64,000 nucleotides of DNA from assembly GCA_032718475.1 (NCBI GenBank), contig JAUCBJ010000144.1:1-64000 (forward strand). The letters run 5' to 3'. Numbering within the stretch: the first letter of the stretch is position 1; each line of letters opens with the position of its first letter. The DNA is from Nemertoderma westbladi (taxonomy: Eukaryota > Animalia > Xenacoelomorpha). The position numbers and the translations under genes were made by a program. The notes beneath the pieces are model-generated. The model saw only the letters and a list, made by a program, of their open reading frames with translations. It searched no databases and had not been told where the DNA came from. Positions 13,993 to 64,000 of this stretch are shown one piece after another.

Positions 13993-14423
13993 CTGATGGA
14001 GAAAAATTTATTTAATGTAAAAAATAAATAAAATAAAACTGTGGTAGACTTAGAATTTATCTTAATCTCATGCTTTATTTTTAAAATGGCTGTTGTTGGA
14101 TACTTTTTTACTTGTTTCTAACACAAGGGCACACATCACGGAAGGCTTCCGCAGGGGTAAACGCCTCGCAAACAACCGGCAATAAGGTGGCAATTAGCTG
14201 TAGTAATGGCGTAGTGAACTGTAGTATATAAAAACACCAGTTTTCGGCGCAATTATTACCAATTCAGCTATTTGCTGTAATAAATTATTTTCGTGGTTCA
14301 TGCTCTCAAAAAATATTAAATTTTTCAATTTTTTCATTATATATGTACCAGTACCACTGTCTCTGCCATCTGCCTGCATCTCTGACAACCCGCCACCACT
14401 CCCTGCAGCCCTGCCCTACATAC

Positions 14424-14918
14424 CTGCGCATATTGCTCGATACCAATACAGTTTCCAGGATCGAGTTGACGCTCTAGGAACGAACCGCACGCTTCCACAA
14501 CGTGACGTACTTGCAGCATTACCGCCGCGGGGAGCAGCTTAAGCACGTTGCACTGGTGTATAGTAACGGAAGAGGTGTACATAAACTCGATTAGAGTGTT
14601 CATTATGTTAGCGGGGACCTCCTGAATGAGGACAGAGTTCCGATGTGATTCATCGAAACTGCTGGCGAACATCGCGCGGAAGTACTCGCTACTCGAGGCG
14701 AGTACCACCTTGTGGGCCGCAAACTCCGAGTTCTCCGCCTGGATCCGGATGTCGCATAGCGAACCGACTTGCCGCAGTTCGTTCATGGATCGGAACGCGT
14801 CCGCGGGATGGTGGTCGCTCGTGAAGGTCATTGACCCGTCCGCTGATTCGTAGTACGGGAGTGCGGAACAGGTGCAACACCGTGCTCTAGAGGCGCTGGA
14901 AGCGGGCGTCATTGCCAT
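14424..14918 (-). CDS. KEAP1: KEAP1 exon 1 (BTB); spliced CDS 1776 nt, 591 aa
   Basis: LCDI...FAAHKVVLASSSEYFRAMF; CAG|GTATGT donor, phase 0; all four exons join in frame. Confidence 0.92.
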
Positions 14919-16602
14919 TATTGCGATTTACATTACCGGCTGACCGGTTGCCGGTACGTAGCATTCGTGGTCGCTGCCATTATACAGTTATAGGTCACAT
15001 AATCACACCACCCTTCTCTGTTCTCATCTCATCACATCAGTAGTACTGTACTGTATTGTAGTGTGTAGTAGGTAGTGGCGTAGTGCAGTAAGCAAATATT
15101 TTTTATAATTCAAATTCACATCATTACAATTTATTTTATTGGTAGATTGGTCCTTTTTAAGCCTAATTTGTAATCCAGATTAATCAGTTAATCAGTTAAT
15201 ACAGTAATAGGCTATATTACTACAGTAGGCCTATAAATTTCACTGAATATTCACTGTTCAGTTATTAGAGAACAACAGTCATTTTAATAGAAAAAGAATA
15301 ATGCATTTATTTCAACCATGACTGCATGCTGGCATGGTATCATGGCCTACTATATAGTATAGTATAATATATAGTAGGCCATGATGGTATCTATCCTCTG
15401 CTATCTGGCTGGCTATCTACTTCTGTACTTGCGGACTTGGGTGAGTACGGAGTATATACTTACTAGATTACACAGACACAGACTAACATATGTATACTGC
15501 TAATATACAAGTAGGCCTACAGTATTTCTTCATATGTCAGAATGACTCTTTTTTTTCCGATATTTAATTTCTCAGACTAATATTATGTAAACTAAAAACA
15601 TTTCAAAGATTTTTTTAACACAATTTATTCTTCTAGAATATAGATACCAATAATCTAAAACAAATTGGCAATTAACAATAAAATAATTCGGATTTTTTTG
15701 TCTTATTTAGAAAAATCTATCGTTCCTTAATTTCCAATGGTATCTTTCCTTATTGACAACAAGGGCGTTTATCCCTTGTCAATGGACTTTGTCTTTGTCA
15801 AGGAGTTACTGTAATGGCGCAAAATGGTTGTCTAACAATTTTGTCAAACAAAAAATTTGTCTAACATCCATAGAAAATGAGCAGGATATAGTAGCAGCAG
15901 TGTTTTCTAAACAACACAATAATAATAAACAAAAATAGATTTACAGTAGTAGGCCTACGGTATGCGTAAACGTTGCATTGACCACTTATTTAACTTAGAG
16001 TACGACCAACTTACAGACTTACGCAACTATTTAAACATTTATTTTCTTGTATTGGACCATTAAAAACAAACTGTTATGTGCCATGCGAACCACTTTCAAG
16101 AGCCAAGATATGATACTGTACTGGATACTGATACATACAGTAGTGATAAGGTAGGCTAGGCTATCTCAGCGAGGAAAGACGCAGTATTGTTTTACAAATA
16201 ATAAGACTCTTGACTATTTCAATTACAAAGGCTATGTGTGGATTTCGCTGAAACTGAATTGGGCGGCCTTCTATATACTGTAGAGCGTACGCAATTTTCT
16301 GCATAAAGTCAAATTCTACAGAAAGCCGTTAACATATATACTGTACAACTGTACAAAACAGACATCAAGGTTTAAACACGTAAATTAAATCCCCCGCGGC
16401 TTGTTTGGGAGCTTCGAGAAAGTGGTTCCAGATTTTGGCCCATGTGAAGTATACTATATTTCTGCTGTTATACTCAGAACTTCACTTTGCAGTGAAGAAA
16501 TGATACCAGGTTTTCACTAAAAACCCAGGTTACAGGTTTTTTAAGAGCCCAACTCCAATTCAGGTTACAGACAGGCTATGGAACTATCCAAAAACAGTAA
16601 AC

Positions 16603-31846: not shown

Positions 31847-32231
31847 GGGGCCGTCCAAGTATGACGTCAGCACTTTAGGGGGGGGGGGGGGGGTGGGAAA
31901 ATCTGATGACGTGCTGATGAGGGGAGGGGAGGGGGTCAGCCAAAATCTGATGTCGGCATGTTCATTTATAGGTGCTAGAAGAGATATAGCAGAAGAGTAA
32001 ATAGCTTGCCTATTTTAATTGTTCGAAGCCCCCGAAGGCCCGTAGCACGACCTTCTGTTTCAGTTACCAGTCACCATGTTTCAGTGATTAGGACGCGAAA
32101 TTTTTTTAATCTGATTTAGGGGGGGAGGGGGGGGGGGGGGGGGTCAACGCATATCTGATGACATCTGATTTAGGGGAGGGAGGGGGTCAACATTTTGGGG
32201 AAAAGTGCAGACGTCATACTTGGACGGCCCC
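31847..32231. mobile_element. MITE (PIF/Harbinger-like), 3-bp TSD TAG
   Basis: TIRs GGGGCCGTCCAAGTATGACGTC / GACGTCATACTTGGACGGCCCC flanked by TAG; internal poly-G tracts. Confidence 0.85.
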
Positions 32232-33039
32232 TAGACTAGATAACTGCCAACGAATTAGCACCCCCACAAAGATGCTGCCATACGGATGGATGGTCGAGCA
32301 TGTATTTCTGGCAAGTTTCAGCTTATGTGAACGGCGAGTTCAAATGAGCGAAGGACTTTCAGACATTTCGCCCTCTAGCGGCAAACTGGAGAACTACACA
32401 CCGAGTATCGTCCCCACAAAAACGCAGGCTGTGTTCTATTACATATCTCACAAGCTTTAGATTGAACCGATCATGAATAACGAAATGAGAAAATGATTTC
32501 ACTATCAGACATTTCACCCTCCGACGGCAGACTGGAGAACTTAGGCCTATTAGCTAGCTTCCTTTGGGGCTAATCAGTCTGAAAAAAGGGAAATAATTTA
32601 TTTATTCATGGCAAAATGAAATAGGAATACAAAATAGTATTGGACCTTCTGCTAATAATGTTCTATCATTATCACTTGTTCCTATGACAATATAAATAAA
32701 TTTTGTACCAACTCTGCTAAACTGTGCCTAACGAAAATGATGTAATTTAAATGATGCCTGAAAATTATCTAAAAATCGGCGGAGGATATTTTTATCTAAA
32801 ATCGAATGGGCGGAGCCGGAGGATATTTGTTTTTTTTTAATATATGGTCAAAGGACCGCTTATTGTATATTATATAAGCATCTAGGTTACTAGGTACCGG
32901 TACCACGGATTAGGCCATGTGTATAGGCCTAATAGCATAGTTCATAAACTGAAAGTAATTCGCTACAAAAGTGTATTTGCCATAACAGTGTCACGCTTCT
33001 TGTTGATATTATAATATGTTTGCAATTTAATTATTTTAG

Positions 33040-34499
33040 GTAAGAGAGTTTGTTTGAACTGCGGTGCCGGGAACCCGTCCAATATGAGTAGCTGCATCGT
33101 CTGCGAGGCGAATCTGCGGGAGCCGACGGAGAGTTCGATCAACCGTGGAAGTTCGGCACCGATCGTTGCAAACCGGGACTCGTTGCTCGTCGGCTGCGTC
33201 AAGTGCGGCCGAGTCAACAACCCGGACGCGCGGTACTGCGACTGGTGCGGCGCGCAGCCACAGGGCCGGCCGGCGCTGCTGAATGAGTGCGGTAAGTGCG
33301 GCGGCCGCAACGGAATAGCGTCGCGGTTCTGTTCCACGTGCGGCGCGTTGCTCGAGCCGCCGGCGCGCATCGATCCCCGTAACAGCGGGTTGACGCTGTC
33401 CCGGGGCGAGCCGATGGCCGAGTCTGTCCGGAAGTATGCCGGCGCGCCGGCTAGTTGGACACCGATATCGTTACCGGTGGGAAAGATAATCGGTAAGAAA
33501 GAAAGCGGGACCCAAACCGTCGGGTTGTTCTATCCGTCGAACAAGGAGTTGGATAAAAGTCGTTTGGTACAGGAGACAAAGAGGATCATAGAGGAGGGAG
33601 TGTCGACCACCTCGAAGAAATGGAACCCGACGGCGGTAAGTCCGGGACGCGGCTACTGGCGGCAACAGATCGAGCACATCTGCGGGAACCTCCGGGCCTA
33701 CACGTCCGGACAGAGCGACTTCCGGGCGGCCATCTCGGAAGGTCGGATGGGCCGGATGCTGAGCGGGAGCGTCCGGGAGGACGGCCACGAGCTCAGCGTC
33801 ACGCTGAACTTCCCATTGCGACAACAGCGGGACGACCCGTTGCGCGGGAAGAATCTCAACGTGACGTCGCAGGGGAAGTTTCTATCGGAGGTTATCGGCT
33901 CGACGCGACATCAGCTGACCACTTCGGACGATTCCGGGACCGAGTTCGAGTCGGTTACCACGGAAACAGAACCGAAAGGTAAGTTTTTAGGAAATAAAAA
34001 GCGTAAGAAGATAAAGAAGAAAGTCTTCGATGTCGATTTGTCTCCAGCAGATCGTCTTCTTCTTAAGGAGGTTGGGGATTCCGGGAGAGGGGACGTGGAG
34101 ACGTTGCGGCAGCTGATAGACGAGGGAGCGGAACCCAACATCCTCGACGAGAAGGGGTTCCCGGCGCTGTTCCTGGCGGTGCGGAACAACCACGTGGACG
34201 CGATCGGGACGCTGGTCTCCGCCGGTGCCGACCTGAAGCGGCGAGCGGGGCCTCGGGGCAACTCGGCGCTGCACGAGGCCGTGTTGTTGGGGCCCGCGGG
34301 GCAGGAAGCCATAGACGCCTTGCTAACCGCCGGGGCCAATACCAAGTGGCGCAACGATAAAGGGGAGACGCCATACGATCTCGCCGTGCAGGGCGGTTAC
34401 GATAGTATCGTTAATATGTTCGCGAGTAACGTAGGGCAACAGCTGCTCGATAAGATAAACAAACCGAAACGAGGATCCATTAGTGTCGACGTTTTCTAG
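33040..34499 (+). CDS. DZANK1: DZANK1 coding exon 2 (zinc ribbons and ankyrin repeats); spliced protein about 767 aa
   Basis: TTTTAG acceptor, phase 1, gives IKLK-G-KRVCLNCGAGNP; TQTVGLFYPS, SPGRGYWRQQ, ankyrin GNSALHEA. Confidence 0.92.
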
Positions 34500-36867: not shown

Positions 36868-39053
36868 GGTACAGTGGATTGTTTATGGTACAGTGGGTTG
36901 TTTATGGTACAGTGGGTTGTTTATGGTACTGTGGGTTGTTTATGGCACAGTGGGTTGTTTATGGTACAGTGGGTTGTTTATGGCACAGTTGGTTGTTTAT
37001 GATACAGTGGGTTGTTTATGGTACAGTGGGTTGTTTATGGTACAGTGGGTTGTTTATGGTACAGTGGGTTGTTTATGGTACAGTGGGTTGTTTATGGTAC
37101 AGTGGGTTGTTTATGGTACAGTGGGTTGTGGGTTGTTTATGGTACAGTGGGTTGTTTATGGTACAGTGTGTTGTTTATGGTACAGTGTGTTGTTTATGGT
37201 ACAGTGGGTTGTTTATGGTACAGTGGTTTGTTTATGGTACAGTGGGTTGTTTATGGTACAGTGTGTTGTTTATGGTGCAGTGTGTTGTTTATGGTACAGT
37301 GGGTTGTTTATGGTACAGTGGTTTGTTTATGGTACAGTGGGTTGTTTATGGTACAGTGTGTTGTTTATGGTACAGTGGGTTGTTTATGGTACAGTGGGTT
37401 GTTTATGGTACAGTGGGTTGTTTATGGTACAGTGGGTTGTTTATGGTACAGTGTGTTGTTTATGGTACATTGGGTTGTTTATGGTACAGTGGGTTGTTTA
37501 TGGTACATTGGGTTGTTTATGGTACAGTGGGTTGTTTATGGTACAGTGGGCTGTTTATGGTACAGTGTGTTGTTTATGGTACAGTGGGTTGTTTATGGTA
37601 CAGTGTGTTGTTTATGGTACAGTGGGTTGTTTATGGTACAGTGGGTTGTTTATGGTACAGTGGGTTGTTTATGGTACAGTGGGTTGTTTATGGTACATTG
37701 GGTTGTTTATGGTACAGTGGGTTGTTTATGGTACAGTGGTTTGTTTATGGTACAGTGGGTTGTTTATGGTACAGTGGGTTGTTTATGGTACAGTGTGTTG
37801 TTTATGGTACAGTGGGTTGTTTATGGTACAGTGGGTTGTTTATGATACAGTGGGTTGTTTATGGTACAGTGGGTTGTTTATGGTACAGTGGGTTGTTTAT
37901 GGTACAGTGGGTTGTTTATGGTACAGTGAGTTGTTTATGGTACAGTGGGTTGTTTATTGTACAGTGGGTTGTTTATGGTACAGTGGGTTGTTTATGGTAG
38001 AGTGGGTTGTTTATGGTACAGTGGGTTGTTTATGGTACAGTGGGTTGTTTATGGTACAGTGGGTTGTTTATGGTACAGTGGGTTGTTTATGGTACAGTGG
38101 GTTGTTTATGGTACAGCGGGTTGTTTATGGTACAGTGGGTTGTTTATGGTACAGTGGGTTGTTTATGGTACAGTGGGTTGTTTATGGTACAGTGGGTTGT
38201 TTCTGATACAATGGGTTGTTTATGATACAGTGGGTTGTTTATGGTACAGTGGGTTGTTTATGGTACAGTGGGTTGTTTATGGTACAGTGGGTTGTTTATG
38301 GTACAGTGGGTTGTTTATGGTACAGTGGGTTGTTTATGGTACAGTGGGTTGTTTATGGTACAGTGGGTTGTTTCTGATACAGTGGGTTGTTTATGGTATA
38401 GTGGGTTGTTTATGGTACAGTGGGTTGTTTATGGTACAGTGGGTTGTTTATGGTACAGTGGGTTGTTTATGGTACAGCGGGTTGTTTATGGTACAGTGGG
38501 TTGTTTATGGTACAGTGGGTTGTTTATGGTACAGTGGGTTGTTTATGGTACAGTGGGTTGTTTCTGATACAATGGGTTGTTTATGATACAGTGGGTTGTT
38601 TATGGTACAGTGGGTTGTTTATGGTACAGTGGGTTGTTTATGGTGCAGTGGCTTGTTTATGGTACAGTGTGTTGTTTATGCTACAGTGTGTTGTTTATGG
38701 TACAGTGGGTTGTTTCTGATACAGTGGGTTGTTTATGGTATAGTGGGTTGTTTATGGTACAGTGGGTTGTTTATGGTACAGTGGGTTGTTTATGGTACAG
38801 TGGGTTGTTTATGGTACAGTGGGTTGTTTATGGTACAGTGGGTTGTTTATGGTACAGTGGCTTGTTTATGGTACAGTGGCTTGTTTATGGTACAGTGGGT
38901 TGTTTATGGTACAGTGGGTTGTTTATGGTACAGTGGGTTGTTTATGATACAGTGGGTTGTTTATGGTACAGTGGGTTGTTTATGGTACAGTGGGTTGTTT
39001 ATGGTACAGTGGGTTGTTTATGGTACAGTGGGTTGTTTATGGTACAGTGGGTT
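36868..39053. repeat. 19-bp minisatellite (GGTACAGTGGGTTGTTTAT)n, roughly 115 copies
   Basis: Direct reading; 19-aa periodicity in ORFs. Confidence 0.97.
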
Positions 39054-40262
39054 TAGCGTAAATCTCTCACTTTTCTGCTTTTAAATGTAAGAGGACAGGA
39101 GTATACTTTTTTCTTTCTCAAAAAATATATGGTGCGCGTCGTCGTCGTCCCATTCAGCCATTGCGGATCCGCACCTGTGTGGCTGTCAGGCTGTGCGTAG
39201 GTTAGTTGAATACAGCAATAGACTGATAGTTGTTACCGCAAGCAAACACGTACTGGCGTACCACAGTCTGAGTGTCTGCAGGTCTGGCAGTATTCATGTA
39301 TTCCGGTATTCAGGCAGTCAGGTATTGCAGTACAGCAGTTAGGCAGTACAGCAGTAGGCAGTAGGTTCCAACTACAAACGACTACATGACTACTGGTCTG
39401 CTGGTAGAATGGACATGGATTAGGCTATATCTGTAATACCAGGTTGCCATCTGGCCAGTGCTGCAGTCCTGTAGTGGCCATGGCATGGCAGCCAAGTTCA
39501 AGTCTGAAAGTACTGCAGTACTGATACTGACAGACTGAAGTAGGCCTATGTAATAATTACGGTCGCTACCGGTTACACCTGTACACGCAACACCAACACG
39601 GCTGCACGAGCTGACGACAGGACGAGTGCACGGTACATACAGACATCAGGACATACTGACATAAGACAGTAAGAAATGAGAGTCTGACTGTCTGAGAGGC
39701 AGTCAGACTCAGACAGTGAGTCACTGCGTCAGTCAGTCAGTCAGTAGGTACGTCAGTACGTGGCACCGGCACCGGCAGTTAGGTACAATGGCCAAATCTG
39801 GCAATGATTGTGATTGCAATATTTGGCAACCAAGCAAAATCTGGCGACATTTCTGATTGCCTGATTTGGCAACTATATAAAGCCGTTGTTGCCATATTTG
39901 GCAACTTAACTAACTCATTGAATAGCCTATGGCTTATATGGTTCTGCGTCATTAAGTCCTTCTATGGCAGTATGGTCATTCCTTAGATCCTGAAATGTTA
40001 ATGTTAGGCCTAGACAGCTAGAAAAAAGGGGTAGGGCCAGGCAGGTTACAGGTTATACTTAGACCGTTAAGTTCTAACTTCTAACCAATACTGAATACAG
40101 CAATATATCCTAATAAATGAGGTGAGAGTGTGAGTCAAAAACACAAACACAGACTGACTGGTTTATTTTTGCTAGTAATCTCTGGCGCTGCTTGGGGAGG
40201 TGGTTGATTGTTGTTTGTACCAATAATAGTTTAGTAGTTAAAGATTGTAACTGTCTGACTGT

Positions 40263-42676
40263 CAGTCAGGGAGATCATCAATTTTGGGGTTACCCCAAAT
40301 TTCGAATTCTGGTAATAGGCTGTCGAAAATTGGGGTTTTTTGTTCAAATTTGAGGTATTTTTAGGCTCATAATAACGAGTGTTGCTGCGACTTAGGGAAA
40401 CTGTTGGAGCAACTTTTACTTTTAATATGTTAAAATATATTGTAAAATAAGAACTTTCATCGATGCAATAAAATATTTCACCGATGCAAACATGCTTTTA
40501 TTGGGGGGCGAAAATTGAAATTTGAGGTTAAACCTCAAATTTGAGATAAAACCTCAAATTTCGCCAGTCTTTACAACATCACCAGCCTGCCAGCAGTAGG
40601 GTGTAGCAGTAGGCTTTGCTGCTTAGTGCTTATAGAGCTTGGTGATAATGGGTGACCAGTGTAACCAGTGACCAATGTGACATGACATGTTTAAAACTTT
40701 AATGATTGTTAACTCCTTTAGTGATTGGTGAGAAAAATGCAGAAGACTAGAGAAATTCGCTATACTATTCGCCTTACTGCCTTACTGTTGGTAAGAAGAA
40801 CAGTAGACCAAAGCCTCACTGTTGGGAGATTCAAGCTCACACAGCTGCACAGTCACAGACTCAGGAAGGCCTACTATATCTTGTAGATGTCAGGATGTTG
40901 AATCAATTCCAGAATTTGGAAGTTTACATATTCTGGCATTCATCTGTTCTGTTCATCATTCACATCACACATCTTCGGAAAAAAATATGTTTTCTGGTTG
41001 TTGATGTCCTCTTTAAAACTTTGTGTACATCAAATGAAGCCATTCCTCTCCTGACAGCCTGAAGACTTATGTAATATTCGCCTGCCCTAGCTCTATCTGT
41101 CAATTGGAATACTGTACCATCATTCTTCCACAGTTTGGAGCCCATTTCTAGAGAAATGTTGCCGCAAAGGTTGACGTGGTTTATACAATATATGTGGACT
41201 TGATTATTTTGTTAGTTATTCTATACGACTGGAGACTCTAAAGGCCATGCCCCGCCCATCTGCCCATGCTCCCATGTCTGCATGTCCCATACATCACCTC
41301 TTCTTATCCAGTTATCAGGGCCATTAACATATGGAACATGCTGGACCTGGAACACAGTAGAAACATCATCATCACTAATCGCTATTCTTTTAAACAGTCT
41401 TTAGACTCTGCTTTCTTATCAAGACATCTGAAATGTTTTAGAAATCTAAATGACTGTTTGTTTATACTATACATACATACATCCTTTTAAATTGACCTTA
41501 TGAGGAACCAGAATCATTTATAACTTGGGCAAAAAGTATAACCTTTTTCACTAACCTATTCTCGAGGCTTTATCTCATCTCTGGCTGGAGTACACCTTGC
41601 ACTCTTGCAGGCATTAAATTTGCATTGCAATAGTGTGTAGGGATGGATTTTGCTCAACTTTCGATCAAAAATTTGATCAACACATTCAATGAAATTTTAG
41701 AAATTCCTCCAAAAATATTTTGGCACTTTGTCAAATCAAATAGGTGACCCTCCTAATCTGCTAATCCTGAAATCACCAGCTAATCCTGAAATTTAGTGCA
41801 GGTGATATCAATATTCCTAACTCTTGTTTATTGTTTTTTGGTTACTTTCAACTCACTTCTGTAACCTGCTCCTTTGCTAACCCTGTAACCGGGCACTAGT
41901 GAAAGTGACTTTAGTTTAGGTGATTTCAGGATTAGCAGATTAGGAGCTAGGAGGGTCCCCTATTTGACACAAATGCCAATGTTTTATTTTACTTTTTTTA
42001 CCGGGAGAAAAAGTGAAATCAATGCAAAATTATGGCTCTATGGTACATTATTATGTGGCAATATTATTCAATATTATTGCAGGTTGCTGTGTTGCCGACT
42101 TTGCAAAAGCTGTGCCCAACAAAAAGTTACAATATTCAGATATTATGGGGACAACTTTTTCCCTACCAGTAGGAAAAAAAAGTAGGCCTACTACTTTTTC
42201 TCCCGATTTTATGGCATATTCAAGCAAAAAAGTAACAATATAAAAATATAAGTTCTTTAAGCTCTGTACTTCGTTTTATATGTCTACCATCTGATCATAC
42301 CACCCCACTGCACCCCTACCGCCCTGCCAGTAGCCTTTTTAAGTATAAGCCTTTTTAAACTAATACTGTATATGTTTTAAATATTATATTTCACAACACT
42401 CAGACACTAGGCCTACATCAGTTTATTTTTTTACCTTTGCAATACAGTAACAAGCTAACAACTGAACAACTACTGAACAAGGCCAACTATGACTTCTGGC
42501 CAATTATGACTATTCTGTCTGTATCTGACTGACTATGCTGCTATGAAATTCAAATTTGGGGTAAAACTCCAATTTAGAGAATTAACCTAACCTTGTATTA
42601 AATTTGAGGTAATTCCAAAATTGGGTCTATAATTTGAAATTTGAGGTATTCTCAAATTTGATGATCTCCCTGACTG
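40263..42676. mobile_element. Non-autonomous DNA transposon B nested in A, CAGT...ACTG ends, 5-bp TSD ACTGT
   Basis: TIR CAGTCAGGGAGATCATCAA; ACTGT at 40258-40262 and 42677-42681; subterminal AATTTGRGGT repeats. Confidence 0.85.
41736..41967. mobile_element. Small MITE nested in B
   Basis: Inverted ends TCAAATAGGTGACCCTCCTAATCTGCTAATCCTGAAATCACC and its near-reverse complement; TSD not resolved. Confidence 0.65.
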
Positions 42677-43932
42677 ACTGTGTAATGCTGATACAATTGC
42701 CCAGCAATCTAAATCATCCTTCACTCTATATATCACTGTATCAGTTCAGTATATCTCACAGTCTCAGTATCTATCTTTCCATTCCTACATCATTACATAC
42801 AGACAGACAGACATATAACAGTATAATGAAAATAATTTCATCCCGTTTTTCATTAGCAGATTAGGGCCTACTAGAAACAATTTGGTTGAATCCCTTAAAT
42901 GCCTTCAGCCTTAACACGCGTTTTGGTTTTCTCAGTCTTTCTAAATTTTAACACTTTTTCTTCTGTCACGCCGTTTCTCAAACTTTAATGCCCCCTTGCC
43001 TTCTTGCTGCCTTTTGGTGATGTTCACGTTCTGACGTTGTCAAATATTATTACGTTTATTTCCATTTCAGTCTTTTAAGCATGTGATTCTTTAGTTTTGT
43101 TTATGCCTATAATACCATATCATATACCAGTCAGCCAGTCTACCAGTACGGTATCTGTTACAGACTCATCCATCTGTCCATTAACATATTAACAACATAT
43201 CAAATACATTCTGACATTTCATCAACTAATGTTTATAAATCATCACAACTCGACAAGGGTAAGCAAGCAGTAAGCAATTTTGAAGTAATTTATAATGACA
43301 GAGTTACTGACAGGCTGACAGGGCTGCACAATAATAATTGTTGCCAAAAATGGCAACCATTATTTTTCTTTAATTCTAATGGTTGCCAAAAATGGCAATA
43401 ATTATTTTAGGCACATTTCGGCCTATTGCTAAGAGAAATTCACACGATGATTTTTTTTCTTATACGGTCAATTATATTTAAATTTCGCGCTCTTTTCACT
43501 TACCTATTTACCAAAATGCGATTTTGCTTCTGGGCGTGCGAAAATTAGAAAAACCAAAAGTTGCCAGATTTGGCAATAAACATTGCCATATGTGGCAACT
43601 TTTGAGGTTGCCAGATTTGGCCATTGTACCTAACTGACCGGTCAGCCGGCAGCCGGTAGCGCAGTCAGGCGGGGGTCCTACGAATTACCCAAAAAAACAC
43701 AATATTACCCAAAAAAAACACAAAAATACACAAAAAAATACAAAAAATTACACAAAAAAAACACAAAAATACACAAAAAAAACACAAAAAGATTTCTTAA
43801 TTAATGGAAAGGAGCAGGTTACTGCCTGACTGCAGTCAGGAACACTGCTGCACTGGTCACAATTGACAATATGTCCAATTTACAGCCAGAATGTGTCCGC
43901 GGAAAACGCTCTCAGAGTGAAATTTCTCCAGA

Positions 43933-46900
43933 CAGTAGGGAACATACCCTTAAATAAGCTCCAAAAGTGGGTTCCTATTTAAGGAAAATGGCTCTTATTT
44001 AGGGGTTTTTGGGCCTTTTTTGGATATTTTTTCGATATAATATGCAATAACTTGTTTCAGGAAAAAATACCGCATAATTTTATTTCACAATGTAAAAGTT
44101 GGGTCTTTCTTGAACATAAAGCAAAAAACCAGAAAACATTTCACCGTCCGGTTTTTTTTCTACAAGCGTTTTAAAATTGCATCAAAAATACGACTAGTTC
44201 CTAAATAAGGGGGATTTTTTAAATTTACCTTATTTAAGATATCGAAATTGTACACATAAATACTAAAAGTCCCTAAATAAGAACTTTTTGACCTGGGTTT
44301 CTTATTTAGGAATACAATTGTATTCCAAAATCTGCACATTCCTTAAATAAAATAAATATTCCTTATTCCTTACAGTATGTGTTACACTTCTTTCATAATT
44401 CTTTGATTTATGTCAGTCTGTATATTGCTAATTGTTGGGATAAGAATAAGGACAATGGTTGCACTGCACTCTATAAATCCTCTATAGAATATCGTATCAT
44501 AATGAAGTTGCTAGCACTGGCATTCTTACCTCACACGGTAGCATAGAATAGCCCATTGATATTCAAAAGAATAGCCCATCGCCCATCTGAGCGCACATAC
44601 ATTGTCACGTATTTCGATGAAACACGACTCAAGTAACTGGACATCGCCGCACAGTTTCGAAAAACTAACTTGTGTCCTGCATTTCCTCTTCTGCTCCGCG
44701 TGACGCCCCACTTAGATGGATTGTCCACAATGTCATGTCAATAGGCACAAAGATGGTTCGGTTGGGCAGCTGATAGACGTTATGAAGGTTAAAGATGATG
44801 ACTGGATGACGTTTTGGCTCAACTGGCTCAGGCAGGAGTGGGACACGTTCGTGGGACCTTTGCGCAGCATGAAGTGAGCAAAGCCTTAGCTAGCCCTAGC
44901 TGATAGGGGCCCCACCCCATTCAGCCATTAACATGTTGTCTTTCGTTAGTCAGAGGTCGTTCAACACAATACTCGTATCCTTAATTTGCCTCATAGCGTT
45001 CGTTTGTTTTTTACCAAACTTCAGATTATTTCAAATCTTTTGACAGACTACATACATACTAAGTTTCGTTTAATTTCATTAAGGAATGACCGAGTTATTA
45101 GCGATAAAAAATTTACAACGACGACAGACAACTCGTTAATGCACCCATATGCTAAGGCTTCGCTCACTTGAACGTGGCTCTCCACCACATTCAATCCGGT
45201 TCGACGCAGTTTGTTGCTCGTTGTTGCTCATTGTTGCTCATTGCTGTTCGTTGTGCTTTATTATTTCTCATTGTTGGTCATTGTTGCTCATTGTTGGTCA
45301 TTGTTGCTCGTTGTTGGTCATTGTTGCTTGTTGGTGCTCATTGTTGCTCGTTAGTTGTACTTTATTATTGCTCGTTGTTGCTCGTTGTACTCTATCTGTC
45401 TATTATTGCTCGTTGTTGCTCATTATTGCTCATTGTTACTCGTTGTTGTACTTTATTATTGGTCGTTCAATCGTTGTTCCTCATTGTTGCTCGTTGTTTC
45501 TCGTTGTTGTACTTTATTATTGCCCATTGTTGCTCGTTGTTGCTCAATATTACTCGTTGTTGCTCGTTCAGTCATTGTTGCTCATTGTTGCTCGTTGTTG
45601 TACTTTATTATTGCTCATTGTTGCTCAATATATCTCGTTGTTGCTTAATATAACTCGTTGTTGCTCGTTCAGTCGTTTTTGCTCATTATTGCTCGTTGTT
45701 TCTCGTTGTTGCTCATTGTTGCTCGTTGTTGTTCTTTATTATTGCTCAGTGTTTCTCATTGTTGCTCGTTGTTGCTCAATGTTACTCGTTGTTATACTTT
45801 ATTATTGCTCAATGTTACTCGTTGTTACTCATTGTCATTGTTGCTCATTGTTACTCGTTCCTCATGTCCTAATTATTGGTCGCTGTTTCTCGTTGTTGTA
45901 CTTTATTATTGCTCATTGTTGCTCGTTGTTTCTCGGTTTTGTACTTTATTATTGCTCATTGTTGCTCAATATATCTCGTTGTTGTTCAATATAACTCGTT
46001 GTTGCTCGTTCAGTCGTTGTTGCTCATTATTGCTCATTGTTGCTCGTTGTTGTTCTTTATTATTGCTCATTGTTGCTCAGTGTTTCTCATTGTTGCTCGT
46101 TGTTGCTCAATGTTACTCGTTGTTATACTTTATTATTGCTCAATGTTACTCGTTGTTACTCATTGTCATTGTTGCTCATTGTTACTCGTTGTTCCTCATG
46201 TCCTCATTATTGGTCGTTGTTTCTCGTTGTTGTACTTTATTATTGCTCATTGTTGCTCGTTGTTTATCGTTGTTGTACTTTATTATTGCTCATTGTTGCT
46301 CGTTGTTTCTCGTTGTTGTACTTTATTATTGCTCGTTCAGTCTATGTTCCTCATTGTTGCTCGCTGTTTCTCGTTGTTGCTCATTGTTGCTCGTTGTTGC
46401 TCATTATTTCTCATTGTTACTCGTTGTTGCTCATTGTTGCTCGTTGTTGTACTTTATTATTGCTCGTTCAGTCGTTATTCCTCATTGTTGCTCACTGTTT
46501 CTCGTTGTTGCTCATTGTTGCTCGTTGTTGTACTTTATTATTACTCATTGTTGCTCGGTGTTTCTCAATGTTGCTCGTTGTTGCTCGTTCAGTCGTTGTT
46601 CCTTATTATTGCTCATTGTTGTTCGTTGTTTCTAGCTGTTGCTCATTGTTGCTCGTTGTTGTACTTTATTATTGCTCATTTTTGCTCGTTGTTGCTCATT
46701 GTTTCTCATTGTTGCTCAATGTTACTCGTCGTAGTCGTAGTTGCTCATTGTTACTCGTTGTTGCTCATTCAGTCGTTTTCCTCATTATTGCTCGTTGTTG
46801 TACTTTATTATTGCTCAATGTTACTCGTTGTTGCTAATTGTTGCTCGTTGTTACTCGTTGTTTTGTTACTCATTGTTCATTCGTTGCTCGTTGTTGCTTA

Positions 46901-47781
46901 TTTTTGGTCATTGTTGCTCGTTGTGCATTTTTGCACCTATCCAATTAAGCTCAGAAGCTCCCTTATCTCTGCATCTTACAATGTCCTGTCAAGGTTAGGC
47001 GGGTAGGAGGTCATAACTGTTATAAGCAGGCAGATAAGGGCAGAAGGAGGACGGGGCTGGGAGACGAGGTTATAAGAGACATAATATAAGGATATTTAAT
47101 TTAATTTATTTAATTTAATATATAAGAAATGAGGCCAGTATTGGTTGACAGAAGGAGATACGCAATGCGTATCCTATTGCGCCTCATAATAGCCTCTCGT
47201 CAACAAGTCAACCCCATAGACTAGCGGCACTGGCTGTTTCAGCTGACGGGGCTCTGTCGAAAACGCGTCCCTGATGCAGTAAGGGCCCTCTTTTGAGGAG
47301 CAATATTATTATTGTCGCGGACCGGAACTGCTTCTACTCTCTGTGAGAAATGAGAAATATTTAATTTATTTAAGGAGTATGCAGATTTTGGAATGAAATT
47401 GTATACCTAAATAAGAAACCCATGTCAAAAAGTTCTTATTTAAGGACTTTTAGTATTTGTGTACAATTTCGATGTCTTAAATAAGGTAAATTTAAAAAAT
47501 CCCTCTTATTTAGGAACTGGTCGTATTTTTGATGCAATTTTAAAACGCTTGTAGAAAAAAAACCGGACGGTGAAATGTTTTCTGGTTTTTTGCATTATGT
47601 TCAAGAAAGAACCAACTTTTATATTGTGAAATAAAATTATGCGGTATTTTTTACTGAAACAAGTTCTTGCATATTATGTCGAAAAAATATCCAAAAAATG
47701 CCCAAAAACCCCTAAATAAGAGCCATTTTCCTTAAATAAGAACCCACTTTTGGAGCTTATTTAAGGGTATGTTCCCTACTG
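43933..47781. mobile_element. Non-autonomous DNA transposon C nested in the MULE, ~420-bp TIRs, CAGT...ACTG ends, 5-bp TSD CCAGA
   Basis: TIRs about 43933-44352 and 47365-47781 starting CAGTAGGGAACATACCC; CCAGA at 43928-43932 and 47782-47786. Confidence 0.9.
45210..46925. repeat. Degenerate 10-bp minisatellite (TTGTTGCTCR)n with higher-order variants
   Basis: Direct reading. Confidence 0.93.
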
Positions 47782-49558
47782 CCAGAAAACAATGCTAAAT
47801 TTCATTTGAAAACCGGCAGTGAAATTTTAACATTGGCATTTTAAAAATTATGCCAGTAGGCCCTATGCCATTAGAATCGCCATAAAATTATGTATAAATT
47901 AATTTGAGAATTAGAATCTCATCGTTCTGTCGTTGGGATAACTATCATAATATTAAAAATAAAAATGTGCCCAGCTTCTGCTTTGAGTACTAGTGGAGTT
48001 ACAGCCTAAATATGTCCGGAAATATAATCGCAGCCTGTGAAGGACAAATAGTGGCTGTATGGACACTTTCTGGCTGTGAATATATGGAAAATTTTTGGCT
48101 GAGCTTCAGCCAGAAAGTGACCAGTGTTACTAACTGTACTGCAGTAGAAGGCTTTTCTAACCAAAACAATAAACGATAACCAAAGAACATAGGTTACACT
48201 TAGTCTTATTTTTCCAACCCTATCATGCCTATAGGATATAAATTATTTTTGTCTTTTGGGGTTTTTGGGTAATATTGCAGTATTGTGTTTTTTTGTCTTT
48301 TATTGTGTTTTTTTTGGTAAATTTTTGTGTTTTTTTGTATTTTTGTGTGTTTTTTTTGTGTATTTTTGGGTAATTTTGTGTTTTTTTGGGTAATTCGTAG
48401 GACCGGTCAGGCGGTAGGCAGGCAGGCTGGCAGGTAGGTCTGTAAGTAGTTGCCAAGTCTGATAGTGATTGTACAGTCTGACAGTCGGTGAGAAGTCAAA
48501 AATTGGACTTGAGTCCAAAATTGGACTTCGACTCCAGTTCAAGTCCAAAATTGGACTTCTGTGAGTCCAATATTGGACTTCAAATCAGCCAATTGTTCCA
48601 GGCAGGGCCTTGGGTAATTGGATCGGGCGGGATTTTTTTTCTTAAATCGAAAATATATCAAAAAATAAGAGTTTTGAACAGGGGGACCTGAAATTCACCA
48701 GGCAGCCAGGGGGAACTTTTTTTATAAGGCTTTGAATTTTTACAAAAGTCCAATATTGGACTTTAATTCCAATTTTGGACGTGACATTGAGAATCGAACT
48801 TAAAGGTACATGAAGCATGACAGATGAGAGACAGCCAGACAGCTGTTAAGTTATGGAAAGTTACCTTTGCAGCTCTGTATGTATCTGCAGTGTAATGACT
48901 GTACTGTACTTAGAATATAATGGTACATTCTAGCATTCTAGGTACTTTGTACTTTACGTTTAGCATATTGTTTAGTTTACAATTTACATTCATGTTACCG
49001 TATGTCTAACCTTACAGCCTTATGTACCCAGGACTTTATAGTGTCTTTAGGACTAGATTAGATTATGCTCCAACAAATATTTAATTACAAATTATAGTTG
49101 GTGGATACTGGTAGCAATGCCAGGTTAGCCAACTGCAGCTGCTGCTAAGGCTAACTACAGTACAAGCTACGATTTCGTCTAAGGCTATAGGAGCCCTATC
49201 AGAAAGAAATACTACAAGTTGATGCTACCACCATCTCTTCTAATTTTTCCATACAACAGGCAGACAGGGAGGGTATTTTAAAACGGCTGGATAACAGGAT
49301 AATGAAATGGGATTAGTCACTGATTAACGTGTTGGGGTCTCCACATAATAAGTACAGAAGTAACAAGTAACACACGTCATAATCATAAACCAATTGAGGG
49401 AAAGGAACAGGTTACAGAGGCAGGCTTTTCTAACTAAAACAATAAACGCCCACTTTTGACTTTACCAATTGAAGGAGCCCTATAACCTCACCACATACTA
49501 CTACTACAATCAGCATGATTCATTGCAGCTGCATTATATATATAGGCCCTATAATGTA

Positions 49559-49742
49559 TTAAGAATGCTGTGCCGGCTTGTTGACAAAAGTGCGCCTCCA
49601 CAACTCCCTTACACTCTTAATAGTCTTAAAGCCTTATCAGTATCACCCATGACATTTGCTAGATCATCCGCATCTTCAAGGCCAGTGTCCTTTAAGACAG
49701 TAAGAAAGATGCGTCTCAAGAAAGTCATGGGCTGTCCACCAT
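49559..49742 (-). mobile_element. RTE-like LINE 3' end, interrupted by the LTR element
   Basis: Homologous to 24225-24356; continues after 62816. Confidence 0.85.
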
Positions 49743-50972
49743 TGTTCGCGCTTTTGAAGACCTTTAGCAGTTTAACCTGCCAAAATTTATATGTCTTTTA
49801 GTTAATTAAAACCACTTTAGCATACGACAATAATTTATGCTAATACGCAAAACATTAGCCGAAGTCAGCCCATGCGCGATCATTCACCCGATGGATCTAC
49901 ACCCGGGAGACTGAATTCGGATGCTTGAATTGTATTATTACAGTGTAAGGTTGCAGTGTATACCTAATGTATTATTCGATAGATCGTTAATAATTAATCT
50001 CTGACAGATATTATTGGCTTTCGGGAAATATTAACAGTTCCTTTAGGACGTGGCGCTTTATCTATTTAAACAGAACTAAGACTTATACTAAAACGCAACG
50101 ATACTGCTTATGATTAAAGTATAAAGCGTATTCTTTAGGAAATACTTTGTTACCAATCACGATCATACACACTATTCTGCCGACAGTCAGTACATTTGAT
50201 CACACATAAAGAGAGCAGTAATTGACTCACGTAGGGTCTGCTAAATAACATTGGATTCAATACACACCACATTAATATAAATCGCAATTGTTATGTATAG
50301 CCGGTCTCTCTAACCTGTAGTGTTATCAAGAAAATTGGGAATTGGGTGATTTATCCGTATTATCCAAATAGCAATATTTCCATCAACAAATAGGTACAAT
50401 TAATAACTGACGGTAAAATAACAGTACAAGCAATATGATTAATGCATTTAAGATTGATTAAATTGATCGGTAGTTAGTTAGGTAACAGTTTATACTTTCG
50501 ATAATTCAAGCAGTTTACTATAGTTCTTACTAAAAGGCCGGTGTTTCTGGCTTAGACAGCAATAACAACAAAGTATCAAGAAAAAACCGTAAGACTGAAC
50601 ACTCTCCTTATGATCGACTAAAAGCTACACGTCGACAGGAAAAATCGCTCTGATTGGCTCAAGCCAAACAAAGAACCGTGCATCTAATGGCTGTTTCCAT
50701 GTCAGCAACCAGCTGTTAGATGTCGTAATATGAATCATCACGGCTAAGCTGTGAAAGGTAGTTGGTGCATTACAAGTTTTTTGCCTTACCATGTCCACCA
50801 AAACACGTATATAGCAGAATGATTTTTATGTCCGTTAAAACACCTGTAAAGGTACCTTGCGGGCGAGGGGAATATATATACAGTCCGAGAACCCTTTTAG
50901 AGTATTCCAGCGCCTGGGGGGGAACTGGCCAGCAAAGGCAAACGTATCAGTTATCCCACAAAAGCTTTTACA
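49743..50972 (-). repeat. 3' LTR (1230 bp)
   Basis: Direct repeat of 61587-62816; preceded on the minus strand by the purine-rich GGGAGCGG (PPT-like, 50973-50980). Confidence 0.96.
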
Positions 50973-51050
50973 CCGCTCCCAGAAAATGGGATTTAAGTCT
51001 ATAAAATATACAAAATCACAGTTTCTAAAATACAAAAATACTCTAAACAG

Positions 51051-53177
51051 TTAGTCTTTCTTGCGCGGACGGCGTTTACGCAGTTTTTTGAAGCTAGCAA
51101 GAGTCCTTTTCTCTTTGGGGCGAGCCACTTTACTAGGAGGGCTATAACTCCTGGGTGAAGGGTGCAATATGATTGCATCAGAAGGTATGGGATTGCGATC
51201 GGTATATCCGCCGGTCGAAGTACCGGGTTGATTGACATCAACGTCAGGGGAGAGGGGTCTAACGGCTTTGAGAGCTCGTTTCAAGACAGCCGCTCTTACG
51301 GGTCCTTTACGAGTGGTCTGAACGAGGGCCGTGGGTGGACCATAGGCAGTTAGAAACTTCCTTGGTTTAATGGTTCTTTCTAACTCGCGTTCGCGGGCTC
51401 GATACTCGTAAGGCCGTCGATATACTTCTTGTAACTCAGGGTGTGAGTTGACGAATAAGTCTCCATAGGCAGGGTCTTGACGGATAAAGTTTATTAAGTT
51501 GTAAGACTGGATGTCACTCGGATTAATGCTCCTGAGGAATTTGCGTACATATTTGGTTGAAATACATTCTCCAACGCGTTTCAATAGTTCATAACTTGAT
51601 AGGCGCGATTTCTGCTCGACGGAGGCAAACAAATATGGATGGAACGCATAAACTCCTTCGTAGGCGCGTCCAGGATAATAGCGATGGCGTGAATCACAAT
51701 GTAAATCAGCGTTCGCTTCCCAAGCTCTGATATAACGTAGTACAATCATTTCATCTACGCTCTCTAAATCATGGTTGAAGGGACAATCAAAGCTGGCGTG
51801 TCCTTTTAATTGACAATGATGGCATTGAGTCATAAATTGGGGGCAGACGGCAAAAATGTGCAAATTATTAAGCCGACAATATGCACAATAGATTTCCATC
51901 GACGGTTGCTCGTGGAAATAGGAACAAAGATCGTTGGTGTCCATGGACGTAATATGGTCTCTCGATGCGCACAGCCGACAACGTTGTCGAGAAACATAAT
52001 TGGCATGGCGATAATCATACGCAGTAAGACACTGTGGACCTTGATACCATTCCAATATATAGTCGCTATCGCTACTCCGAGCCGTGGGGGGCTGAATCTC
52101 TTCCGATTCTAAACATATGGGTTCGTCTTCCCCTTGTATAGTTGAGGTAGGTATGGCCGTCTCCTCAAGTGGACCTACCGTCTGAATTTCCACGACAGAA
52201 TAACCGGTGGGGATCCGAGGTCTTTGGATAACCGAGGAGTGCAGGTTTATCACACAAATGTCTCGGAAAATAGCGAATCCAGCGCTATCCAACTTCTCCG
52301 CAGCTGAGTCTCTTAAGCTGAGCTTGGTCAAAGCGCGGTCTTTGAATTGGCTATCCACGTTGCGAAACGGGGTTAAAAACCGTCGGAAACATTCAAAGCG
52401 GATGAATTTATTATGTTCATCTAGCTTAGCGAGTTTGGTCCCAAGGATTAATGGATGGGCGCGTATAGTACGACTGCACACATCGGCTAGCCAACCGGAA
52501 AGTGCGGTGTTTTCGAAGATTGTGTAGATAGCTAAGGAGGGACGGAGTGGAACACTCATGAAGCTATACACGGCGCCAGGTGCGGTCAACGGTCCGTCAA
52601 AGTATAATCGAGAATAATGGTCTCCGTATACTTGTTGATAGTTGATGGGATTTCCGACCTTGAAATTCCACCCGTATTCCTGAAAGGCAAGATGTCCGAT
52701 GGAAGTTCGTTGCACCTTTGTAATGTTGCTAGACACATTAGCATACATGGTGCGAAAGAAACCTCGGCCTTCGGCCCAAGGCGCTATCAGCTGAGTATCC
52801 ACGAAAGGATAGGGGATATTCTCCATATTCCGAAAGTCGTTTTGGAGATCTCCATAAACAGCTGAGCCGATTTTAACGATTCTTTCGTTGAATAACATCT
52901 CGAGAACGGGTTGGGGTAACATCGATCCATCGATACCCATGGCCGGTTTGCGTTCGGTGTCAATGACGTAACGCTGCGCGAGTTCGAATTGTCCATGTCG
53001 GAGATTCTTTTGCGTTTCGGTGAGAGTTTCGAAGGAATAATCGATCGCGTCGGAACACGCTCGCGTAAACACGTGAGTGGAGCCAGCTAATCCGCGTATC
53101 AAGCTATCCACAAACGCTTGTAAAGGTAGAGTATATCGCTCTCTAATACCAAGGTCATCTTCTATCAATTCCGTCAT
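51051..53177 (-). CDS. LTR-element ORF2 (708 aa): DEDDy 3'-5' exonuclease-like N-terminal domain, three CCHC-like zinc knuckles, basic tail
   Basis: VIDTE (Exo I), LPQPVLEMLFNERIVKIGSAVYGD (Exo II), PLT...VYSFMS (Exo III-like); CRLC..H..C, CAYC..H..C, CHHCQLKGHASFDC. The ORF is certain; the domain call is from motif recognition only. Confidence 0.65.
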   Translation of the reverse strand: MTELIEDDLGIRERYTLPLQAFVDSLIRGLAGSTHVFTRACSDAIDYSFETLTETQKNLRHGQFELAQRYVIDTERKPAMGIDGSMLPQPVLEMLFNERIVKIGSAVYGDLQNDFRNMENIPYPFVDTQLIAPWAEGRGFFRTMYANVSSNITKVQRTSIGHLAFQEYGWNFKVGNPINYQQVYGDHYSRLYFDGPLTAPGAVYSFMSVPLRPSLAIYTIFENTALSGWLADVCSRTIRAHPLILGTKLAKLDEHNKFIRFECFRRFLTPFRNVDSQFKDRALTKLSLRDSAAEKLDSAGFAIFRDICVINLHSSVIQRPRIPTGYSVVEIQTVGPLEETAIPTSTIQGEDEPICLESEEIQPPTARSSDSDYILEWYQGPQCLTAYDYRHANYVSRQRCRLCASRDHITSMDTNDLCSYFHEQPSMEIYCAYCRLNNLHIFAVCPQFMTQCHHCQLKGHASFDCPFNHDLESVDEMIVLRYIRAWEANADLHCDSRHRYYPGRAYEGVYAFHPYLFASVEQKSRLSSYELLKRVGECISTKYVRKFLRSINPSDIQSYNLINFIRQDPAYGDLFVNSHPELQEVYRRPYEYRARERELERTIKPRKFLTAYGPPTALVQTTRKGPVRAAVLKRALKAVRPLSPDVDVNQPGTSTGGYTDRNPIPSDAIILHPSPRSYSPPSKVARPKEKRTLASFKKLRKRRPRKKD

Positions 53178-53220
53178 ATCTGCTATCTGAGTTTGTTAAT
53201 ATCAATATAAGTTAATATTT

Positions 53221-53376
53221 TAGGCAAGCGGGCGTCGCTGCCTACTCGGCTTTTTGCCCCCGGACAGTGGGTTTCTCAGCGCCGATGTACCGTTGTCGCG
53301 GTGTTTACGCCAACATGTAGCAACAGCACGACAACGATAACCGGCACAAGTCCCACCACTGTCCGTCCCAAAAGCT
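53221..53376 (-). other. Structured RNA element (long hairpin plus small hairpin) just 5' of ORF2
   Basis: Nested complementary arms GGACAGTGG/CCACTGTCC and TATCGTTGTCGTG/CGCGACAACGGTA, whose mismatches are G-U pairs only on the minus strand. Confidence 0.7.
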
Positions 53377-54796
53377 TGAATCCACTTGAGGTTATCTCGG
53401 TAGAGTTAGGGCTACTTTACAATTGCGATTAGCTACTGTAAACACACTTTAGTAGTAACATTCACCTATAAACGCACAAATTCCATACAATCGTTACTTA
53501 CTGCACACATGCATGCCATTTGTCCGTTAGTCAGTGTCTTCCAGAATGTCACGTTATTACTATGTATCCTTGGATACCAATAGTGCGCTATGTATACTCT
53601 TATGCTACGCAATGGGGCAAGCTTTTTATTGTTCCTTTTAACTTGCTTCTAATTCTAGCGTGGGTGTTGCCATGGTGACATTATGGAAAACTAGCGGTAG
53701 AATTAGGGCAATTCTCATGCATACAGATCTGGGATGTTATTTAATAGTAATTCTTTAATTGTCAATATCCTCTTTATGCATGATTTTATAAATTTTATCG
53801 GCTATTGACTATATGTTGGAGATTCTCGCGCTCTAGTACACTCAATATGAATCTCCGCTCCCATGATCTATTAATTACTGGAATTTTGGGAATGTTATAA
53901 ATTGCACAAAATGACAATTTATGAAATTCATTCGAATATGAATTTAAATTTATTCCCGTGAATTTTATTATTTGATGTTAAAATTGACACAATTTGATTC
54001 CAGAGCAGGTCTGGGGACATAGGATCCTTAATTCTATGAAAATTGTCTTTTAAGAGTATCGGTAAGTGCTACGATATCTTAATCGACTAGAATTGTTAAC
54101 GGATCTGAATTTTACAGATTTTAATAAATATTAAATTAATATTTAGGATGGGCACCGATTTATTCCAGAACTTGTCTGGGGACGTTAACCACTGATTCTA
54201 GAATTTGTCTTTCAAGTATATCGGTGGGTGCCACGATATCTTAATCGACTAGAATTACAGATGGTCAAAAGTTTAACAGATTTATTTGCGATTTACGCTA
54301 CTGTTAGAGGGACATCACGCTACTATATGTATTATTTGTTATAAGGTAGAAGAGCAATATCGCACGAAGCAATGTCAGTGTGAAGAGGCAAGTCGTTTCC
54401 AAGGTCTACCCAGAGCTTGGTTTAGCCGAGACACGAGGATCTGAACTTTGCATTCCTAATACTCTGCCTACCAATAATACTTAAATATAGTAGTGGCTTT
54501 ATTGTACTTTAAGAAGTACTGACATGTCATCTTACTATAGTCTCGCATTTATAATATAATACGGACAGTAAGGAAAGAGAAAAGAATTATTTCTCGCCGT
54601 CGCACTAGATATATTATGTAATTACGTAATAAACACTAATATATTGCACTAATCTACTAAATAATCTAAATAACATTCCACTAAATAAAATTAAATAAAA
54701 CGATTATAATAAAGTACATAATAATCCATACCTAAATATAAAATAATAATAAAAAAAATATAAAATAATATAGTCACACACCCACTCCATATATAA

Positions 54797-62816: not shown

Positions 62817-63012
62817 ACCATGCTTATTCACTCCATGAGGTGCACTGGCTGGTCCTCACGGCTTAAAGCGATGTCCTGCAAAGCGGAGGCGGCTTTGTTC
62901 TAGTGTCAAGCTTGGGGGAACCAATGACTGAATGAGACACCTCCAACTCCAATGTTATATAGTGTCTGGTTGGAGATGCAGAGATGTGTGCATTGTACTT
63001 GACACAGTGAAC
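62817..63012 (-). mobile_element. RTE-like LINE fragment, continuation of 49559-49742
   Basis: Homologous to 24030-24220, with small insertions and a deletion. Confidence 0.85.
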
Positions 63013-63137
63013 CTAATCAAAACAATTAGTCAATAAACATTAACTCAATAACACAATAGGTTACAGTTTACAGCTTAGTCTTATTTTTGCCATACGAAAA
63101 TACCACAGGTATGGCAGTATGGGTCTGTGGGTATGAA

Positions 63138-63232
63138 TTAGCGTTAGACCGGAGCCAGATTTTTGCCGGAGCCGGAACCGGACCGGGTAAATTCCAAAAG
63201 TACCGGAGCCGGAACCGGAGCCGGACCGGGTA
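63138..63232. mobile_element. hAT-like terminal fragment with (CCGGAR)n subterminal repeats
   Basis: TAGCGTTAGACCGGAGCC followed by CCGGAG/CCGGAA arrays; no partner end found. Confidence 0.35.
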
Positions 63233-63516
63233 GGTAAATTTAAAAAAAATATATTGAGGCCTGGTATGACTGTATGACCTAAAGGTACCGGTACCGTGCA
63301 CTGTCAGACTGTACTATAATACGACCTGGCATGTTGCAGTTAGTCCACTACACAGCTACATTTAGTGAGCCAACTTCTCCACTTTCTGACAGTCTGAATT
63401 TGTTTATACTTTATACTCATAAACCAGTACATTACGGTCTGACTGTAGTCGGGTAGTTTTATTACATATTAAATCTAACAAAACAATAGATCAACGATGC
63501 AATAGAAGAATGGTTG

Positions 63517-63965
63517 GGGTCCTACGAATTACCCCAAAATACTCCAAAATACCCCAAAATAGTCAAAAATTACCCCAAAATACCCCAAAAAGGCTAAAAA
63601 ATTACCCCAAAATACCCCAAAATAAGCTAACAATGTTTTTTAACAGCGAGGGAAAGGAGCAGGTTACAGTGGCAAGTTTTTTTTAACCAAAACAATAAAC
63701 GAGAGTGAAGAAAAATTTTTTAATTATTTTGGGGTAATTCGTCATTATTTTGGGGTAATTCGTCATTTTATCTTATTTTCGCGTAAATTAAATTTCCAAA
63801 ACAAAGGCTCAAAAAAAAGTATTTTGGGGTAATTCTAAACTATTTTGGGGTATTTTTGGGTAAATATAAACTATTTTGGGGTATTTTGGGGTAGTTTTAT
63901 ACTATTTTGGGGTCTTTTGGGGTGTTTTGGGGTATTTTGGGGTAATTCGTACTGTCGTAGGACCG
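63517..63965. mobile_element. MULE-like MITE, 9-bp TSD GAATGGTTG
   Basis: Same termini as 43673-48405; TSD at 63508-63516 and 63966-63974. Confidence 0.9.
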
Positions 63966-64000
63966 GAATGGTTGCAGGGTTGATAGCATCAACTCAGTCT

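Follow-up and report, generated by a model that had tools for sequence, protein, structure and literature searches.

The 64,000 nucleotides of Nemertoderma westbladi DNA analysed here (contig JAUCBJ010000144.1, positions 1 to 64,000; hereafter the window) contain three intact elements with terminal inverted repeats (TIRs), designated A, B and C, and some 80 short scars in which a pentamer is repeated on either side of CAG or CTG. Together, the three elements and the scars point to one system, more coherent than first described. In our best reading, A, B and C belong, as non-autonomous elements, to an unnamed group which cuts like Tc1 and duplicates 5 bp of its target. These gene-less elements were probably moved by a transposase with a Tc1/Sleeping Beauty-like cut, which probably also made the scars in their neighbourhood. 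The new observation is a set of 84 scars, with an excess confined to a 5-bp duplication, and its tie to the Sleeping Beauty/Tc1 footprint. Coordinates are those of the window, and a strand is given only where one applies.

Element A (39776..43636) is a non-autonomous TIR element of ~1.44 kb when B, which is nested in it, is set aside. Its perfect 29-bp TIR is flanked by the target-site duplication (TSD) ACCGG (39771-39775 and 43637-43641). Element B (40263..42676) has a perfect 19-bp TIR and the TSD ACTGT (40258-40262 and 42677-42681). Element C (43933..47781), nested in a further element termed D, carries a perfect 42-bp TIR, which continues imperfectly to ~440 bp (43933-44375 and 47341-47781), and the TSD CCAGA (43928-43932 and 47782-47786), its length being read from one copy. 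An internal tandem array of 10-bp units occupies 45211-46924 of C. Scars are located inside all three elements (13 in A, 15 in B and 4 in C). When flank duplications of 2-11 bases were tried, 5 was the sole fit for each element, and the coordinates and TSDs of the original prediction hold exactly. From base composition, three such matches would arise by chance with a probability of ~2e-9. Across the window, A, B and C are the only pairs of CAGT..ACTG ends with no more than 2 mismatches over 14 bases and a 5-bp duplication.

The common CAGT..ACTG ends reported earlier are in fact part of a longer motif, CAGTHRGG, which is found at all six ends. The three elements had also been called unrelated. 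This is true of their interiors, for which self-BLAST returned no mutual similarity of at least 40 bases, but not of their ends. As predicted, palindromic subterminal arrays are present in each element, and every family has its own units. Six TTGCC..TGGCAA dyads are found in A (within 39857-39904, 43341-43398 and 43561-43598) and three dyads of the AAATTTG.GG..C.CAAATTT type in B (40280-40302, 40518-40542 and 42637-42659), while C contains seven TAAATAAG and six CTTATTTA units. The window had been described as free of transposase, and none of the 108 open reading frames (ORFs) scanned (all those of at least 45 aa in 39700-48500 and of at least 95 aa elsewhere, tandem arrays excluded) matches a Pfam transposase family. 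The Pfam matches among them correspond to host genes, fragments of long interspersed nuclear elements (LINEs) and the DUF1759 protein of a long terminal repeat (LTR) element. Exact 20-mer scans of metagenomes with the TIRs gave no match for A and none for C. Four viral-contig matches to a 17-mer of C diverge within a few bases past the pattern and are taken as chance.

The scars are far more numerous than expected. Under stricter masking, in which the second TIR of C and low-complexity words were masked, the window contains 84 pentamer-CAG/CTG-pentamer scars against ~2 expected. In the whole window, CAG or CTG fills the spacer in 85 of the 402 five-base duplications with a three-base spacer (12 expected), whereas duplications of 2, 3, 4 or 6-9 bases with the same spacer give observed/expected ratios of at most 1.1. 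Counting by 1.5-kb blocks yields 82 scars, where 20 Markov simulations gave 0-6. The scar-rich zones were delimited after the data had been seen; they contain 83 scars, compared with a maximum of 5 in the simulations, of which 200 were run for each of three Markov orders. Around the 463 CAG/CTG words of these zones, duplications of length 2, 3, 4 and 5 occur 41, 12, 8 and 83 times, and those of length 6-10 do not occur; seven control triplets give 2-8 duplications at length 5. Both spacer orientations are used (49 CAG and 36 CTG), in proportions compatible with 50:50 (p 0.19). Among spacers of 2, 4, 5 and 6 bases no class shows a comparable excess. Two-base CA/TG spacers are only modestly raised and overlap the three-base class, and one-base C/G spacers are not in excess over A/T. 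Most scars look young, since those with one mismatch (71) barely exceed the controls (19-59). Beside A (39766-39775 and 43643-43656), one pentamer pair has a single C as spacer and another has CA.

Could such words be replication-slippage or repair micro-duplications, unrelated to the elements? Short tandem duplications (spacer 0) of several lengths do exceed the Markov null in the window, and 3 of the 83 scars fall in period-4 runs. However, slippage inserts no constant CAG or CTG between the repeats; the excess is restricted to length 5 with this spacer and is not shared by the control triplets, and both spacer and length equal the ends and the TSD of the neighbouring elements. An origin by slippage is therefore very improbable.

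Contigs assembled from four public DNA runs (X1-X4, from three studies, one possibly the window's own source) allow comparison with other copies and with empty sites. The comparison draws on 15 of the 65 joints, 12 of the 45 insert rows, 12 of the 230 indel rows and 24 of the 1180 loose ends; no RNA run was listed as containing the stretch. B had been predicted to sit in a footprint, and contigs without B bear this out. A joint in X3 (40256->42676) skips 2419 bases, corresponding to B and one TSD, and leaves ACTGT-CTG-ACTGT, the pre-existing scar (40250..40262, plus strand) into which B inserted. A single ACTGT without B is found at a joint in X4 (40249->42677) and at two loose ends (40254 in X3 and 42677 in X2). 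Among the rows listed, the site of B is thus observed in three states, bare, scarred and occupied, and its scar is older than the insertion of B.

Other scars show the same alternation. Six pentamers which are single in the window (40221, 42693, 43498, 43505, 43586 and 43589) have CTG-flanking duplicates in the contigs of other copies; they account for six of the eight scars found in four insert rows, picked by eye among the 12 listed. Inside C, the scar CCATT-CAG-CCATT (44917..44929, plus strand) has 8 extra bases which are absent from 1003 of 1003 units of contig depth in X1, 5000 of 5134 in X3, 754 of 2159 in X2 and 0 of 65 in X4. As these sites occur either single or scarred in the contigs, the scars are insertions into single pentamers.

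A, B and C are multi-copy. In X1, the contig over the left flank of A (39400-39801) has the lowest depth (23.7, with 0 differences), which is single-copy-like, and depth reaches ~610 for A, 670-850 for B and 336-1003 for the interior of C; contig depth is not copy number, and these values are taken only as multi-copy, roughly tens of copies. Among the 32 contig pieces listed, four, from three runs, begin exactly at the first base of C (43933) and carry additional letters on its outer side, whereas one ends at the last base of A and one at the last base of B. Inside B, small inverted-repeat units are present at 41750-41946 and 42002-42205. A high-depth fragment at 42092-42134, from which contigs continue leftward with tRNA-like letters, is probably a piece of a short interspersed nuclear element.

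Which enzyme could generate such scars? In Tc1/mariner transposition, the cut on the non-transferred strand falls a few bases within the element, whose terminal bases are left behind after repair; the canonical Sleeping Beauty footprint is CAG or CTG, the three terminal bases, between duplicated TA targets (PMC6943129, PMC5224488). CAGT ends are known from the ITm elements pogo_NA (PMC3845634) and Dici (PMC13469147), and subterminal repeats are bound by a pogo-like protein (PMC1636448). A, B and C resemble Sleeping Beauty, Tc1 and pogo in their CAGT ends and, provided that the scars are theirs, in a footprint of terminal bases between target duplications. They differ in having a variable 5-mer as target instead of TA, and in their dense palindromic subterminal arrays. 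With a 5-mer in place of TA, the scar adds 8 bases and not 5.

Since the scars have the layout of the Sleeping Beauty footprint, the 5-bp duplication of A, B and C standing where TA would be, and since their insert equals the terminal bases of these elements, we infer a staggered, hairpin-free cut three bases inside the element, combined with a 5-base target stagger. The elements themselves would then have made the scars. In the proposed cycle, the enzyme would bind the CAGTHRGG ends and the family-specific palindromic subterminal sites. One strand would be cut at the very end of the element, the other three bases further in, with no hairpin, so that each flank would retain a CAG overhang. The two overhangs could anneal with one central mismatch, and repair to CAG or CTG would produce the net 8-base insertion. 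At a new site, the element would insert through a 5-base staggered cut, with a preference for N[C/A]N[G/T]N and above all for NCWGN.

The same geometry may also belong to another unnamed DDE family, for instance one with a P-element-like fold and a staggered hairpin-free cut. The donor site of a P element retains terminal bases of that element, and the TA target of ITm is lacking in A, B and C, which suits such a family; on the other side, the scar insert is the Sleeping Beauty footprint letter for letter. We therefore hold this alternative to be plausible but clearly behind. Overall, an ITm-related enzyme has in our estimate about an even chance, another unnamed DDE family perhaps half as good a one or slightly better, and hAT5 a small one, as do all other candidates taken together.

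Subterminal arrays of the present kind are hAT-like, and hAT5 had been put forward as the nearest named alternative. It is a named group with 5-bp TSDs (Kapitonov and Jurka 2007, as cited in PMC12730594) inside an animal hAT lineage, the one which contains Blackjack, and shares with A, B and C this duplication length, short TIRs and an animal host; a CAGT start is also found in some hAT elements (PMC3845634). If A, B and C were non-autonomous hAT5 elements, another family, or unusual repair after hAT excision, would have to account for the scars. Judged by hAT-wide behaviour, relatives of hAT5 excise via flank hairpins, which give variable flank-complementary insertions, and leave none of their own terminal bases (PMC5224488, PMC3499496). 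In contrast, the predominant scar has an intact duplication on each side of the terminal three bases, and the scars match the duplication length and the terminal bases of A, B and C at one sharp length. Because flank-hairpin excision would not leave CAG or CTG between two intact duplications, hAT5 is disfavoured; it would call for a second CAG-ended 5-bp family, and we regard this origin as unlikely. The available portions of PMC12730594, PMC6004678 and the EDTA v2 preprint say nothing of a hAT5 terminal motif; the group is described in Repbase Reports and its termini may be given in supplements. B and C were also considered as hAT elements with TAGGG/CAGGG ends and 8-bp TSDs, and this was rejected because, by eye, no direct repeats flank those inner boundaries.

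A divergent Transib or other CMCT-clade lineage would account for several features, given that Transib has 5-bp TSDs (PMC1131882) and CMCT lineages mostly have CA..TG termini, a weak criterion, with 2-5-bp TSDs (PMC12730594). However, Transib begins with an invariant CAC and has GC-rich targets, whereas A, B and C begin with CAG and the scar pentamers are 38% GC, as are the pentamers available (the three intact TSDs have 9 GC of 15). Flank-hairpin excision is moreover expected for Transib (PMC1131882), and the scars are not of a hairpin-like type. Such a lineage is improbable here. Still less credible is a 3-bp duplication misread as 5 bp in PHIS/NuwaI elements. NuwaI duplicates CWG (PMC4482050), NCWGN is the favourite target in the window and B alone can be read in this way. 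In A and C, the outer bases are duplicated and not complementary, so that a 3-bp reading breaks the TIR and 5 bp are required; the scars, in addition, duplicate arbitrary pentamers. Among Ginger relatives, TDD-4 and TDD-5 share the 5-bp TSD and animal Ginger2 has 4-bp TSDs, while the Ginger termini TGTNR (PMC2836005) are absent from A, B and C.

In the literature available, mostly outside subscription journals and Repbase Reports and in part only, no described family was found which joins CAG(T) ends, a variable 5-bp duplication and terminal-three-base scars, a negative which does not establish absence from print. The earlier proposal of a poorly classified or undescribed group is thus retained, with Tc1/Sleeping Beauty in the place of hAT5 as the nearest mechanism.

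Several points nevertheless weigh against a Tc1/Sleeping Beauty-like system. Tc1 elements less typically carry dense palindromic subterminal arrays than do hAT, CACTA and P elements. The superfamily assignment stays unproven because neither a transposase nor an autonomous copy was found, the search comprising the window ORFs against Pfam and the exact TIR scans of metagenomes. None of the scars was linked to the excision of a named element, and the scar at the site of B predates B. All three intact elements have NCNGN duplications compared with 25% of the scars, so that some scars may come from other families; those inside A, B and C may have been inherited with the family and not formed at this locus. 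ITm is defined partly by its TA target (PMC7325037), which none of ACCGG, ACTGT and CCAGA contains; for this reason, and as no enzyme has been seen, we do not file A, B and C as ITm. CAGT ends, lastly, also occur in hAT elements with 8-bp duplications (PMC3845634).

The scars further inform on target choice. NCNGN, proposed for the duplications of this group, describes the three intact TSDs but only 21 of the 83 scar pentamers (nearly all of them NCWGN), compared with 5% of the pentamers available. It is a preference, not a rule. The wider pattern N[CA]N[GT]N is found in 51 of 83 versus 25% available, and pentamers with G in second or C in fourth place are under-represented (9 of 83 versus 34%). 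A scar itself creates an NCWGN word, and old scars therefore probably attract new insertions, as at the site of B. Nested scars are consistent with this: 9 of 88 are detectable only once earlier ones have been removed, with none for five control triplets.

Scar density is very uneven, up to 25 per kb. A field left of A (39054..39775) contains 18 scars in 722 bp. A second cluster of 10 scars (14300..16400) surrounds the 5′ end of a minus-strand KEAP1-like gene (BTB-BACK-Kelch), 9 lie in a field right of D (48400..49770) and 10 in a field beyond the LTR element (62820..64000). Scar-poor parts include 12.3 kb at the window start with none and 20.3 kb of the middle with two; the LTR element and the long ORFs have none. 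Selection against frameshifts accounts for the ORFs but not for empty introns and spacers, which argues for regional targeting of insertions, as suggested by one clear gene start and by two scars just upstream of a DZANK1-like ORF. TA-type scar-like words are also in excess in the whole window: TACAGTA/TACTGTA occurs 54 times against 10.8 expected, TAGGCCTA 14 times and TACCGGTA 12 times against 0.7 each. Their spread is more even than that of the 5-bp scars, and they suggest additional TA-targeting families.

A broader reading combines these features, and as a whole we rate it slightly below an even chance. A, B and C would represent an undescribed animal lineage, either an ITm branch without TA target or a new superfamily, which duplicates a variable 5-mer and excises with Sleeping Beauty geometry. 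This lineage would home to the 5′ ends of genes as well as to its own scars, and its 8-base insertions, at up to 25 per kb, would make it a major targeted indel mutator of regulatory DNA.

TA targeting belongs to the definition of Tc1/mariner. If a Sleeping Beauty-type cut is indeed combined with a variable 5-bp target, the way an element is excised and the geometry of its target can evolve independently, and the enzyme would be a natural model in which to study what determines the length of the target. From the scar, the chemistry of an unclassified family can also be deduced when its enzyme is not in hand, and the 13 bases of the scar are a searchable signature for finding the group in other genomes. 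Should the clustering at gene 5′ ends hold genome-wide, regulatory DNA would carry, in the form of the scars, a dense fossil record of targeted transposition.

Element D (43673..48405), the host of C, has GGGTCC..GGACCG ends and stands outside the CAGT group. Its duplication is the 9-bp GTCAGGCGG, although an 8-bp reading also fits. A sister copy of 449 bp (63517-63965) has the same ends, a 9-bp duplication and 10-bp subterminal arrays as in D. By duplication length, we take both to be Mutator-like.

The LTR element (~49770-62820) has two long terminal repeats which are near-identical by eye, and encodes a 1551-aa DUF1759 protein (54797-59452) and a 714-aa ORF without Pfam match (51051-53195). 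As no 5-bp scars are present in 49770-61400, it is probably younger than the scars or not targeted. LINE-type fragments with RVT_1 and DUF6451 matches are located at 5035-5801 and 23424-24356, and 49460-49801 resembles them by eye. The KEAP1-like gene (14927-10984, minus strand) has a 5-bp scar at 14935, just 5′ of its first ORF. The DZANK1-like gene (25440-34499) apparently consists of two long coding exons, with best matches of 43-46% identity in annelids, lancelet, hemichordates and vertebrates; an SOCS-box/SH2 ORF lies in its intron on the opposite strand (29211-29801). Tandem arrays, besides that inside C (10 bp), occupy 1-929 and 2937-3919 (both 28 bp) and 36868-39053 (19 bp). Short inverted-repeat elements are found at 21938-22332 and 31847-32231, the latter with GGGGCCGTCC ends and a 3-bp TAG duplication.

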